64,000 bases of DNA from Escherichia virus TH15. The DNA lies in the sequence record MT446392.1; one strand, given 5' to 3'. How positions within the stretch are numbered: the stretch's first letter is position 1; each line of letters starts with the position of its first letter. The translations under genes and the position numbers were made by a program. This document shows positions 5,671-45,749 of this stretch, in pieces. A model generated the notes under the pieces. The model was not told where the DNA came from and made no database searches. It worked only from the letters and a program-made list of their open reading frames with translations.

Positions 5671-6944
5671 TCCAGTGGTGGAAGTTTAACACCAAGATAA
5701 GAACTCAATTGGCTTTGGTTAGCCATCTTATCCATATCAGCCCCATCAATAATGCGAGCTTCTTTATCGTCTTTAGCAACGGTATAAGGGTTCGCAGTCA
5801 GTGCATAACGAGCTAACAGTGCAACTGTAGGCTGTAAACTTTCAGGGTCAACGATAACCTTGAATTCCCCAACCGAGGTGTCACCCTCATCATCAACTTC
5901 ACTAAGACCTTCCGTATAAGGCGCATAATACAAAGATGCGACCGTCTGACCTTCACCCATATCGGCATTTACGCCAACAATAACATAATCGCATGGGCTA
6001 TTCATATCTGCATAAAGCGGCAAACCGTTCTTCAGAACGCCATAGGCCAATTCATCCTGGTCGTCCTTTTTCTCAACCCAACCAGAAGCTGCTAAAATAG
6101 CTGCACACCGGGAAGAGGCAACTGCATATGTACCAGCGAACGAAGTCTGACGTTGAACTGCGGAATTCATTTCGCACATATAATAATACAGGGTTCGAGC
6201 CCGGTCTTGCGCATTATCATATCTCGGGTCGGTAAGATTCAATACACCTTTTTCAGAAACACCTTGTACCTTGAAGCGGGAACTAACAGTAATAAGGGAT
6301 TGCAGTACGTCCTTATTAATTTCCTCTGCCATTTGAATGCCAAGGATATTATCAATAAAATCTGTTGCGTCGAAACCATTTGCTTCCAGGTCCTGAGCAA
6401 GCTCAACAGTTAAAGAGGTTTTCAGTTTTCTGGATTTGACTTCGGTCTGCCATTTATCGATACGGAAACCGGCTTCAGCAATTTCAGGATGACCCTGTTC
6501 AAATTTATTAGTGAAAGCTGCATCCGACATCATTCTTATATGGCCAGCAGCAATGGCTTCAGAAATAACTTCACCCAAATCAGTTTCAAGGGTCCCAGCA
6601 AAAGGAGAAGCTTCCAAAACTTTGAATACAACGCTTTCGAACTGGAACATATCGCCGACTGCATAAGCTTCGTCTTTATTTGTAAATTCTGGGATATTCT
6701 TACGCTCGAACATGCCAATCTGGCCTGCAAATGTTGCTCCACCAAGATATGTCATTTTATCATCTGGGTTCAGAACACGAACACCATACAACGCTGCAAC
6801 AGGCTGGGTAGTTTTCTGTTCGGCAACGAGTGCTTTAAAAATTCGTTTATTCGTAGCCTGGGTATAAGAAAGCAAATTAGGACGGGCGACCTGGTTGGCC
6901 GCCGTTAATGTTGATTCGTGAATTAGTGCGTTAATCTTTTGCAT
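5661..6944 (-). CDS. second gp24-like head vertex protein (divergent tandem paralog)
   Basis: 427 aa; shares NKWxxxVKSRKLKTxLTVELAQDxEANGF and INKDVLQSLITVS blocks with adjacent gp24; start ATG abuts gp24 stop (TAAATG). Confidence 0.8.
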   Translation of the reverse strand: MQKINALIHESTLTAANQVARPNLLSYTQATNKRIFKALVAEQKTTQPVAALYGVRVLNPDDKMTYLGGATFAGQIGMFERKNIPEFTNKDEAYAVGDMFQFESVVFKVLEASPFAGTLETDLGEVISEAIAAGHIRMMSDAAFTNKFEQGHPEIAEAGFRIDKWQTEVKSRKLKTSLTVELAQDLEANGFDATDFIDNILGIQMAEEINKDVLQSLITVSSRFKVQGVSEKGVLNLTDPRYDNAQDRARTLYYYMCEMNSAVQRQTSFAGTYAVASSRCAAILAASGWVEKKDDQDELAYGVLKNGLPLYADMNSPCDYVIVGVNADMGEGQTVASLYYAPYTEGLSEVDDEGDTSVGEFKVIVDPESLQPTVALLARYALTANPYTVAKDDKEARIIDGADMDKMANQSQLSSYLGVKLPPLEKE

Positions 6945-43976: not shown

Positions 43977-44455
43977 TTATGAATATTAAATTTGGTCAGA
44001 CCATCCCTAAAGGTTATGTGATTGAAATTGAAACCTGGGAAAATGATGGTGACAACTATAAAACCCAGACAATATTTGGTGTAGAAGAACAAGAAATCCA
44101 GCAGTACAAATATATCCTGGAACTTTTTCAAGGCTCTCATTGTAACTATCCAGATAAATGTGGTAATTCAGAATGGGACGTAGTTAAAGACTTTCTTATC
44201 GCACACATTGAATCTGGTGTAAAATCTGGTCAATTAACTCCTGAATTCATTAACAAAACACTTTGTATTGAAAATCTGGAAAACCTGGTTGAAGGTGACA
44301 ACGGCCAGGAATTTGAATTATTGTGTTCTCTCCAGGAATTGCTGGGCGAGCCGGTGGAATATGATAGCGTTTTGCGCGTAGTTTCGTGGGTAAAATTATA
44401 CATCATCGAAGAAGAAATCCAAATACCAAACGTTAAAGCACTTAATATGCTTTAA
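43973..44455 (+). CDS. hypothetical protein
   Basis: 160 aa. Confidence 0.55.
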   Translation: MIMNIKFGQTIPKGYVIEIETWENDGDNYKTQTIFGVEEQEIQQYKYILELFQGSHCNYPDKCGNSEWDVVKDFLIAHIESGVKSGQLTPEFINKTLCIENLENLVEGDNGQEFELLCSLQELLGEPVEYDSVLRVVSWVKLYIIEEEIQIPNVKALNML

Positions 44456-44533
44456 GAGTTATGTGTTATTATTAATAAGTACCCTCTATTACCAAAGGTT
44501 CTTCCCTCAAAGAACCTCTCATAATAGAATTAA

Positions 44534-44607
44534 GGCCCTGTAGCTGGACGGTCAAGCGAGCGACTCATAATCGCTGGATGGTGGTTCGATTCCACCCAGG
44601 GCCACCA
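44534..44607 (+). tRNA. tRNA with anticodon CAT (Met, or Ile if lysidine-modified as in T4 tRNA-Ile), encoded CCA
   Basis: Manual fold: acceptor GGCCCTG/CAGGGCC, anticodon stem AGCGA/TCGCT, loop CTCATAA, T-arm GGTGG-TTCGATT-CCACC. Confidence 0.8.
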
Positions 44608-44741
44608 AACTTATTTTAAATTATCATGGCGATAGGTATTGTAGATGCGGTTCGATTCCGTCCGGGGTAAGTGCCCTAGCATGCTTGGAGCATGAGTGAC
44701 TTAATATTGGTGGTTCGAGTCCACCCCGCTATGAACAAACA
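44608..44741 (+). other. tRNA-like remnant or small stable RNA candidate (two T-arm-like motifs, no canonical cloverleaf found)
   Basis: GCGGTTCGATTCCGTC and GGTGGTTCGAGTCCACC present; acceptor pairing not found by hand. Confidence 0.3.
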
Positions 44742-44817
44742 CGAGGCATAGCTCAGAAGGAAGAGCAAGGACCTTCTAAGTCCTAGGTCGTAGGTTCGAT
44801 TCCTACTGTCTCGACCA
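44742..44817 (+). tRNA. tRNA-Arg (anticodon TCT), encoded CCA
   Basis: Manual fold: acceptor CGAGGCA/TGTCTCG, D-stem GCTC/GAGC, anticodon stem AGGAC/GTCCT, loop CTTCTAA, T-arm GTAGG-TTCGATT-CCTAC. Confidence 0.85.
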
Positions 44818-44989
44818 AACAAGAAACCGGGTCGCTACCGGTAAGTCGTCGGACTGAAGTTCCCTGTTTAAGGACTGACATTAATAAATCTTTATGTTTT
44901 GTTAATGACCCCTTATCTCACAGCTGAAACGGCGCACCTAATTATCGATTCGAGGAAATATCTTTGCCGTAAGCCGAGTGGCGTTTTTG

Positions 44990-45085
44990 ACGGAACGTTC
45001 GGATATGGTCGAGATATGGCCTTTTAAAAATATTGAGTAGCGTCAACTACTTGATAACCGGGTTCGAATCCCGGCGTATCGTACA
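44990..45085 (+). other. tRNA-like element or stable RNA candidate with canonical T-arm CCGGG-TTCGAAT-CCCGG
   Basis: T-arm seen; matching 5' acceptor not found. Confidence 0.25.
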
Positions 45086-45132
45086 AACACTTGCCTAGCA
45101 GGTGGAACCCCGACAAGGTTACCCTAGGTTAA

Positions 45133-45162
45133 AGCCCCTCCCGAAAGGTTGGGGCTTTTTTA
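45133..45162 (+). terminator. intrinsic terminator closing the tRNA cluster (AGCCCC...GGGGCT plus T6)
   Basis: Hairpin 45133-45156, T-run 45157-45162. Confidence 0.75.
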
Positions 45163-45168
45163 TAAATA
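45161..45168 (+). promoter_or_regulatory. T4-type late promoter TATAAATA on plus strand
   Basis: Exact octamer 27 nt upstream of ATG 45195. Confidence 0.6.
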
Positions 45169-45194
45169 TAACGTACCCATAACTAAGGAAATTT

Positions 45195-45749
45195 ATGAAA
45201 CTTTTAAAATATCTAAGCTGGATTCTGTTAGTGCCACTGGATTTCATTTCAATGATTCTGGCTGTTATCCTTGCACCATTTGTAGTGCCGTTCCATAACA
45301 AAAAGACTGGTAAGCTTCCGTTCGGATTTGACTGGATGATGACATACGATAATCCAATTGATGGTGACCGTGGTCATGTTAAACGTTGGGAAAAAATCAG
45401 AAAATGGCCGTTAGGTGTTTACTTCCAGCGAGTGGCCTGGCTCTGGCGAAATAAAGCCTACAATTTTGCTTATCATAAGCTGGGTCGCGATTGCGATTCT
45501 AAATTCCATTATAAAGGTAATCCTGATGTTGAATCGGGCTCCCCGGATAAAGCTCACCATGGCTGGCTCTGGATGTGGAATGATAATGCATGGGGCGTGT
45601 TCGCTTCCGTACCTTATCTTAAAGTTGGTGGAATCACCTTTTATCTGCGCGTGTATTGCGGTTGGAAGCTCAAAAGTCTTCTGTCCCGTCCTATCCCGAA
45701 AGCTATGTTAGCCTTTCATATCAATCCCTTCCGTTTTTATAAGAACTAA
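45195..45749 (+). CDS. hypothetical membrane-anchored Trp-rich protein, apparently late-expressed
   Basis: 184 aa; N-terminal hydrophobic segment; late promoter upstream; terminator downstream. Confidence 0.55.
   Translation: MKLLKYLSWILLVPLDFISMILAVILAPFVVPFHNKKTGKLPFGFDWMMTYDNPIDGDRGHVKRWEKIRKWPLGVYFQRVAWLWRNKAYNFAYHKLGRDCDSKFHYKGNPDVESGSPDKAHHGWLWMWNDNAWGVFASVPYLKVGGITFYLRVYCGWKLKSLLSRPIPKAMLAFHINPFRFYKN

Follow-up and report, generated by a model that had tools for sequence, protein, structure and literature searches.

Knowledge of the T4 RNAs rnaC and rnaD dates back to the 1970s. In the T4 record (NC_000866) the annotated order is tRNA-Arg, rnaD ("small, stable RNA; species 2 RNA"), rnaC ("species 1 RNA") and e.8. 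Both are stable RNAs classed as late. Their roles were given as "unknown" in 2010 (PMC3014915), and likewise in 2022 (PMC9697503) and 2025 (PMC12685909). In cells infected with T4, rnaC accumulates as a stable RNA of about 140 nucleotides (nt) (PMC9697503). We analyzed the corresponding transfer RNA (tRNA) cluster of Escherichia virus TH15 (MT446392.1). The window, the whole stretch that was analyzed, is 64,000 nt long. In the best explanation, positions 44534-45161 are a tRNA operon with five small RNAs on the + strand and one terminator. The order is tRNA(CAT), RNA X, tRNA-Arg(TCT), rnaD and rnaC. We give this explanation as a whole a probability of about 0.7. rnaD and rnaC are already known, and their presence here is routine annotation. 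RNA X is the new part of the finding. It represents a family of tRNA-like RNAs that had not been annotated before and whose double-T-arm architecture is unusual.

X resembles T4 rnaC and rnaD in being a predicted non-decoding stable-RNA gene in a phage tRNA cluster. Like rnaC, it has a T-arm and a closing stem, and the same motif (ACAAACAC) follows X and the window rnaC. It is not homologous to the T4 RNAs. The covariance model of X (R1, built from A4, a MAFFT alignment of 17 X copies) has no match on T4 rnaC or rnaD. The folds differ as well: rnaC combines a single T-arm with a long irregular arm, and X combines a pair of T-arms with a closed acceptor-like hairpin in its interior. Unlike rnaC and rnaD, X is found in few T4-like phages and also in N4-like podophages. 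A literature search returned no paper on a phage RNA with two T-arms, nor one that links N4-like phages with tRNA-like RNAs.

Covariation and architecture of RNA X

Two alignments were used. A4 was not fitted to a structure. A6 contained 20 copies, with Kaypoctavirus added, and was fitted to the model, which makes it somewhat favorable. In A4, 96.8% of cells form standard pairs, compared with 40-56% when partners were slid by 1-3 columns. Nine pairs changed on both sides, and the covariation score was 0.355. In A6, 97.7% of cells are paired, compared with 39-58% for slid partners. Both sides changed in 17 of the 30 pairs, and the covariation score was 0.518. Slid partners scored at most 0.10 in either alignment, and the observed score was reached by 0 of 500 shuffles in each. 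Every helix of X has at least one compensatory pair in A6. The alignments show X to be a separate, conserved and selected RNA structure.

The changes are visible helix by helix. The closing stem occurs as CAUGGCG/CGCUAUG, GACGGG/CCCGUU, GGUGGG/CCCACU and GGCAAG/CUUGCC. The 5' strand of T-arm 1 is GCGG, GGGG or GUGG, with matching 3' strands. Hairpin B occurs as GGGG/CCCU, GUGG/CCAC, GUAG/CUAC and GUGAAG/CUUCAC. In hairpin C the top pair changes from C-G to A-U and the second pair from A-U to G-C. The pairs of the mini hairpin are AU/UA in the T4-like copies, UA/CG in the G7C-like ones and CG in KP8. It is short, and the evidence for it is moderate.

X lies in the 134-nt spacer between the tRNA labeled Met and tRNA-Arg, where it was folded by eye and with RNAalifold. 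Its coordinates (Table 1) are the ends of the closing stem and not those of a mature RNA. T-arm 2 is predicted to stack on an acceptor-like closing stem of 7-8 base pairs (bp), which together form a tRNA minihelix. This is the part of X that matches a tRNA, in that an acceptor stem stacks on a T-stem of 5 bp whose loop fits UUCRANU, and both helices (1 and 6) covary. A single C lies between T-arm 2 and the 3' strand of the closing stem, and the junction has a mismatch or bulge (A-C or U-C). T-arm 1 and the abutting hairpin B form a second predicted acceptor/T-like stack. Hairpin B has a conserved C-A mismatch at its base and is variable in its loop and in its distal length. An anticodon arm is absent from X.

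Several positions are invariant or nearly so. They are the two T-loops, the GG in each of the small loops, the UAGAU that precedes T-arm 1, the C-A mismatch of hairpin B and CUUA.UA. Alignments A4 and A6 contain no supported pairing partner for GACUUAAUA (44698-44706). A pseudoknot between GGU (44635-37) and ACU (44699-701) was rejected. It shows no covariation, and changes in KP8 and VLCpiP4a break the pairing. UAGAU could also pair with ACUUA, and all of these positions are invariant. The R1 family features are the closing stem, mini GG hairpin, T-arm 1, hairpin B, UUGG hairpin C, GACUUAAUA and T-arm 2. The window copy has all seven in order and scores 114 bits (E ~3e-24).

Table 1. Features of the TH15 tRNA operon and of RNA X, in window coordinates
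Feature	Position	Strand	Basis or remark
tRNA, anticodon CAT (tool label Met)	44534..44607	+	ARAGORN; Rfam tRNA 62.6 bits
RNA X, 109-nt unannotated tRNA-like structured RNA with two T-arms	44625..44733	+	Covariance model R1, 114 bits
X closing stem, 5' strand, acceptor-like, CAUGGCG	44625..44631	+	Pairs with 44727-44733; 5/7 pairs change on both sides
X 2-bp mini hairpin, AU[AGGU]AU, invariant GG; candidate D-loop equivalent	44632..44639	+	RNAalifold; alignment
X T-arm 1, GCGG-UUCGAUU-CCGU	44647..44661	+	Second pair C-G, G-C or U-A in three lineages
X hairpin B, closed acceptor-like stem abutting T-arm 1	44662..44679	+	5/7 pairs change on both sides
X hairpin C, CAUGC-UUGGA-GCAUG, D-arm-like, invariant UUGG in loop	44680..44694	+	RNAalifold; alignment
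X single-stranded GACUUAAUA, near-invariant	44698..44706	+	Alignments A4 and A6
X T-arm 2, GGUGG-UUCGAGU-CCACC	44709..44725	+	GUAGG/CCUAC in Kaypoctavirus
X closing stem, 3' strand, CGCUAUG; then ACAAACAC	44727..44733	+	Alignment; pair counts
tRNA-Arg (TCT), CCA encoded at 44815-44817	44742..44817	+	ARAGORN; Rfam 68.4 bits
T4 rnaD (species 2 RNA) orthologue	44819..44938	+	Alignment to T4 NC_000866 71171-71053, 100/118 identical (85%)
T4 rnaC (species 1 RNA) orthologue	44945..45083	+	135/139 identical (97%) to T4 71046-70908, no gaps
Conserved 3' trailer, rnaC to terminator	45084..45132	+	Kept in T4 (39/49 identical) and JS98
Intrinsic terminator, GCCCCUCC-CGAAA-GGUUGGGGC + U6	45134..45161	+	Terminator scan; conserved in T4 and JS98

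Relatives of RNA X and comparison with known RNAs

Copies of X were retrieved from three T4-like and two N4-like genera, and X was annotated in none of the records examined. By blastn, it is 100% identical in the Dhakavirus phages VR5, VR25 and TH22 and 98.6% identical in TH40. Identity is 95-98%, over the element only, in Kanagawavirus (KLB31, PEi20 and PEi26) and Karamvirus (CkP1). It is 76-80% over about 90 nt in Gamaleyavirus (G7C, EC1-UPM, pSb-1, St11Ph5, PhAPEC5/7 and others). A third, more divergent lineage is present in the Klebsiella N4-like Kaypoctavirus phages KP8, phi1_146050 and VLCpiP4a. These copies were missed by blastn and were recovered by R1 with filters off, at 93-99 bits. 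N4 itself lacks X in its gp42-gp50 region.

Wider searches added no lineage. Pattern scans of IMG/VR and metagenomes returned the same three lineages only, and most loose-pattern matches were unrelated. No match came from 185,579 bacterial and archaeal species genomes in two exact-pattern scans, or from 5,426 complete E. coli genomes with blastn. X is restricted to virulent phages of Enterobacteriaceae yet common to two unrelated phage families.

The surroundings of X differ in every lineage, and no conserved protein gene was found beside it. In PEi20, KLB31 and CkP1, X starts 2-3 nt past the CCA of the upstream tRNA, a spacing typical of tRNA clusters. In the same three phages the ribosome-binding site of a coding sequence begins about 8-20 nt downstream of X. 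In the N4-like phages X lies in the gp47-gp48/gp50 non-coding tRNA region. In Gamaleyavirus this is a long non-coding, tRNA-bearing stretch between gp47.x and the virion RNA polymerase gene. The T4-like copies are nearly identical in three genera with unrelated flanks, which argues for recent horizontal spread. The sequences point to spread of X within tRNA clusters, apparently along with the 3' end of the upstream tRNA(CAT).

CkP1 contains a homing-endonuclease-like open reading frame (ORF) of 211 amino acids (aa) just upstream of X, in a locus (L006:828-1493) that also takes in part of a tRNA. Its matches to NUMOD3 and endonuclease I-like models are weak and below threshold. The ORF ends 1 nt before a lone tRNA 3' half with a T-arm, an acceptor 3' strand and CCA (~1465-1493), and X begins 3 nt after this half. 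The arrangement suggests that a tRNA gene of CkP1 was invaded or split by a homing-endonuclease gene, or by an intron.

A second small RNA gene was found in N4-like phages. It is a 68-nt, D-armless, tRNA-like "mini" gene present in 65 N4-like phage records (N4 NC_008720, 32867-32934). Loci that we read include N4 L085:5868-5935, L018:307-374 and L086:909-977. It is mostly unannotated and is sometimes labeled tRNA-OTHER or tRNA-Undet (KP8, AL25). In the mini RNA the CCA is encoded and the GUGCAC(A) loop is invariant, and covariation is seen in its stem, with UGUC/GGCA in N4, CGUU/AACG in KP8 and ACCCU/AGGGU in cp20. It lies in the same N4-like non-coding tRNA region as X, about 100-300 nt upstream of X in those of the loci read that contain both. 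The two share a motif order of acceptor strand, UAGGUA, 5-bp hairpin, AGUG, T-arm and acceptor strand. Unlike X, it contains a single T-arm and lacks both hairpin B and GACUUAAUA. Among sequences other than X, the mini RNA gives R1 its best match, at 19 bits, and ordinary tRNAs score 12-16 bits. A relationship to X is suggestive only, since 19 bits is too weak to prove homology. To judge by motif order, X looks like a mini RNA into which T-arm 1, hairpin B and CUUAAUA were inserted.

The gp47-gp48/gp50 "non-coding" region is packed with more T-arm-bearing structured segments that tRNA finders do not call (G7C L003:1466-2655, UE-S5a L018:1-1291 and N4 L085:5114-6632). G7C has a long closing stem around AGGUUCAACUCCU (L003:~1880-1975), which is conserved in N4 (L085:~5944-6040). 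UE-S5a has a T-arm-bearing segment that ends in CUGAUAACCA (L018:375-500).

X was compared with known RNA classes. Rfam assigns it to no family, even at E values up to 10 on the isolated element (44620-44740). The same permissive search of 44400-45250 returned the two tRNAs plus noise, which consisted of T-arms against transfer-messenger RNA (tmRNA) models and a YrlA match of 14.5 bits. X is not a canonical tRNA. ARAGORN makes no call, and RF00005 has no match at E up to 10 on the isolated segment. A cloverleaf would lack a D-arm in the canonical place and a supported 5-bp anticodon stem with a 7-nt loop.

Like the tRNA-like domain of tmRNA, X has an acceptor stem with a T-arm, a reduced D region and no anticodon arm. 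A tmRNA was rejected nonetheless, and so was a permuted tmRNA. ARAGORN finds none, X contains no tag reading frame and no pseudoknots, and tmRNA models match the bare T-arms only, at 5-9 bits. The G3-U70 identity of alanine tRNA is not conserved. Under one numbering it is G-U in 4 of 5 T4-like copies and A-U in CkP1, and the N4-like copies have C-G or U-A.

The YrlA match (RF02553) lies far below the gathering score of 69. It covers T-arm 2 and tRNA-Arg rather than the inner module, and the YrlA model has no match on isolated X. Unlike YrlA, X has no Ro-binding helix and no rsr-like gene nearby, and it has an extra open tRNA-like minihelix. The inner module of X runs from a variable-like linker through a T-arm and a closed acceptor-like hairpin to a D-like GG hairpin. 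We take this to be the permuted tRNA-like order of YrlA, as a lead only.

A protein-coding X was also rejected. The only overlapping ORF is 48 aa long, with a TTG start, on the minus strand across X and tRNA-Arg. The substitution pattern of X is that of RNA helices and not of a coding sequence.

The tRNA operon and its other RNAs

The closest megablast records for 44400-45250 are T4-like Dhakavirus phages. TH22 is first, with 96.9% identity and 100% query coverage. It is followed by VR25, VR5 and TH40, and JS98 is more distant. On these matches, we assign the window to a T4-like Dhakavirus genome.

ARAGORN, and Rfam at its gathering threshold, each find only two tRNAs in the whole 64-kb window. 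These are the two canonical tRNAs (CAT and Arg-TCT) that the first-pass annotation had folded by hand. The remaining segments, whose folding into ordinary tRNAs by software would have counted against its reading, gave no further call. Its title described a cluster reduced to two genes. That is misleading, as the cluster contains two tRNAs and three non-decoding tRNA-like or stable RNAs.

The tRNA(CAT) is probably a lysidine-type tRNA-Ile2 that reads AUA. A tRNA-Ile2 is annotated at the equivalent position in the KLB31 record, just upstream of the KLB31 copy of X. The window tRNA has the anticodon arm AGCGA-CUCAUAA-UCGCU and a GGCCC acceptor, and we take it to be a lookalike of E. coli ileX in both.

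In the 64 kb there are five copies of the motif GGTTCRANTCC, and they all lie between 44583 and 45071 on the + strand. By chance one would expect 0.24 copies (100 shuffles), and 0 of the 100 shuffles had as many as five. Two copies belong to the tRNAs and three are orphan T-arms. The three extra T-arm-like motifs of the first-pass annotation were thus borne out, at 44647-44662, 44709-44725 and 45058-45074, with clustering far above chance. Its statement that they have no pairing acceptor stems was not. In X, CGCTATG (44727-44733) pairs with CATGGCG (44625-44631), and the pairing covaries in relatives. In rnaC, CGTATCG directly 3' of the T-arm pairs with CGATTCG (44946-44952), with one U-U mismatch. 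One pair of this stem changes from A-U to G-C in Enterobacter phage CIP9 and Serratia phage LC53.

T4 synteny is kept in the window, in the order tRNA-Arg, rnaD, rnaC, trailer and terminator. Mean column identity between 44742-45170 and the T4 stretch is 90%. The rnaD alignment to T4 has 3 gap columns. rnaD starts one nt after the tRNA-Arg CCA, and JS98 also has it. Homologues of rnaC occur in 741 phage records, and the RB27 copy is annotated as rnaC. By alignment, rnaD and rnaC of the window are intact genes and direct T4 orthologues, not decayed tRNAs. The earlier suggestion of stable RNAs like T4 species 1 and 2 proved literally correct for 44819-45083. tRNA-Arg is only 37/75 (49%) identical to that of T4, compared with 97% for rnaC. 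From these identities, rnaC would be either under tighter constraint or more recently exchanged than the adjoining tRNA-Arg(TCT).

The minimum free energy (MFE) structure of rnaC has a cloverleaf-like, tRNA-like shape (z = -3.9). From the closing stem the fold runs through a long irregular arm and then a 10-bp hairpin to the T-arm (45058-45074). The rnaC homologues of CIP9 (L100:400-543) and LC53 (L101:400-544) are divergent. They have a non-canonical "T-loop" of UGCAUCC or UGCAUGC, compared with UUCGAAU. In LC53, rnaC lies between tRNA-Phe and tRNA-Trp and not after tRNA-Arg and rnaD.

The strong terminator noted at the end of the region was confirmed. Its stem is 45134-45155 and its T-run is 45156-45161, and it is kept in T4 (26/28 identical, from 45133) and JS98. 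TATAAATA, which matches the T4 late-promoter consensus, lies at 45161-45168, directly 3' of the T-run. It is 27 nt upstream of a DUF7338 gene (45195-45749).

JS98 differs from the window in its RNA content. In JS98 the slot between tRNA(CAT) and tRNA-Arg contains a normal tRNA-Asn, and the window has an unrelated 134-nt segment there. The flanking tRNA(CAT) is identical and tRNA-Arg is near-identical. JS98 has also lost rnaC through a clean 146-nt deletion, and rnaD, the trailer and the terminator are kept (JS98 L001:1950-2440 against window 44534-45200). Judging from this alignment, the RNA content of the operon is modular among close relatives.

The octamer ACAAACAC lies directly 3' of both X (44734-44741) and rnaC (45084-45091). 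The KLB31 copy of X is followed by ACAAACAA. The octamer may be a common 3' processing signal or a recombination junction.

Proposed function of RNA X and rival explanations

X, rnaD and rnaC would be cotranscribed with the operon tRNAs. Because they present tRNA-like acceptor/T-arm helices, they would be excised by the host tRNA-maturation machinery. Ribonuclease P (RNase P) would cut at the 5' end, and the 3' end would be trimmed endo- or exonucleolytically, with possible CCA addition. All three would then accumulate as stable non-decoding RNAs. RNase P processing of multimeric (dimeric) tRNA precursors has been described for T4 (PMC11143913). In X, each T-loop probably docks on one GG loop to give two tRNA-like "elbows" in one molecule. 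In tRNA, G18 and G19 dock on the T-loop. X would act by tRNA mimicry toward a factor that binds the tRNA elbow or acceptor arm, and not by decoding. We use tRNA mimicry as a working model. A more specific form of it is doubtful. Here X would be a bivalent tRNA mimic with two elbows, one open acceptor end and no anticodon, and it would titrate or misdirect a host factor that recognizes tRNA shape. Candidate factors are, for example, a tRNA-targeting defense nuclease or transferase, RNase P or the ribosomal elbow-binding site.

Several points weigh against this account of X. The single-sequence MFE z-score of X is -1.0, and thermodynamics alone is uninformative. The single-sequence MFE structure, which usually breaks T-arm 2, is 5-9 kcal/mol more stable than the consensus. 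A consensus above the MFE is common in tRNA-like folds that rely on tertiary contacts. The A6 pair counts are inflated by the fitting to the model, and those of A4 are not. There are only three sequence lineages of X, and independent substitutions are fewer than the cell counts imply. X has no encoded CCA, and its 3' flank is G or A followed by AAC, CCC or similar. RNase P maturation and CCA addition of X are proposed from its shape only. The docking of T-loops on GG loops is based on invariant bases, which are beyond covariation testing.

X may be a decoy or sponge for a host tRNA-directed factor, with two elbows and no cleavable anticodon loop. Candidate targets are a tRNA-cleaving or tRNA-modifying defense toxin, RNase P, a T-loop modification enzyme, the CCA-adding enzyme and the ribosomal elbow-binding site. 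This reading fits the two canonical T-loops, the two invariant GG loops and the missing anticodon arm. It also fits the confinement of X to virulent Enterobacteriaceae phages, with no copy in the 185,579 species or 5,426 E. coli genomes. X moved horizontally between unrelated phage families, as counter-defense cargo often does. Phage tRNAs that neutralize tRNA-targeting defense offer a precedent (PMC11464382). On the other side, no conserved protein gene was found next to X. We hold this reading tentatively and give it a low probability, slightly higher than that of the cis-acting rival below. It is compatible with the best explanation and does not exclude it.

The main mundane rival is a purely cis-acting processing or "punctuation" element. 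Its tRNA-like shape would only recruit RNase P or RNase E to cut adjacent RNAs or mRNAs apart, or protect their ends, and the excised X would have no function of its own. X does lie directly between a tRNA and either another tRNA (window) or a coding sequence (CkP1, PEi20 and KLB31), and it contains a tRNA-like minihelix. Such an element needs the outer stem and one T-arm only, whereas X also has a conserved inner module. The inner module consists of T-arm 1, hairpin B, hairpin C, the invariant GACUUAAUA, the invariant GG loops and the conserved C-A mismatch. It is conserved and covaries across Straboviridae and Schitoviridae, which argues against punctuation, and the flanks of X are completely different between lineages. 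We consider this explanation unlikely.

Decay was the other suggestion of the first-pass annotation. X would then be two tandem decayed tRNA genes kept by chance. It has two tandem T-arms with an acceptor-like strand after each, ARAGORN and Rfam make no call on it, and 44695-44725 resembles the anticodon/variable/T region of the JS98 tRNA-Asn with deletions. In the compensated helices, however, the two supposed remnants are paired with each other: the "first" contributes its 5' end and the "second" its 3' end, and the first is also joined through its 3' strand to the 5' strand of the second. Helices that bridge both remnants would have no reason to persist in pseudogenes. X is also 95-100% conserved in three T4-like genera with differing flanks, and its architecture is the same in all three lineages. 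A tRNA pseudogene was rejected on the compensatory changes (17/30 pairs, across five genera) and the 97.7% paired cells against 39-58% for slid partners. Decay is very improbable for X, and it does not suit rnaC, which is better kept than tRNA-Arg.

The least credible reading of all is that software missed a functional decoding tRNA with an uncommon design, such as one that is split or permuted or has an intron: the acceptor stem and T-arm have tRNA geometry and CUUAAUA superficially resembles an anticodon loop (C32, U33, UAA), but CUUAAUA has no conserved 5-bp closing stem (closing pairs are A-U/G-U in T4-like and A-C in G7C-like copies), position 37 would be U, there is no canonical D-arm or intron-like or bulge-helix-bulge feature, and neither ARAGORN nor the Rfam tRNA model gives a match.

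Annotation understates the variety of non-decoding tRNA mimics in phage tRNA clusters, and several others are found in N4-like phages. For asking what such mimics do, X offers a small and well-defined molecule. If the bivalent mimic is true, X would be one that has been exchanged between T4-like myophages and N4-like podophages. It would then give a first functional handle on the 50-year-old puzzle of the species 1/2-type phage RNAs.

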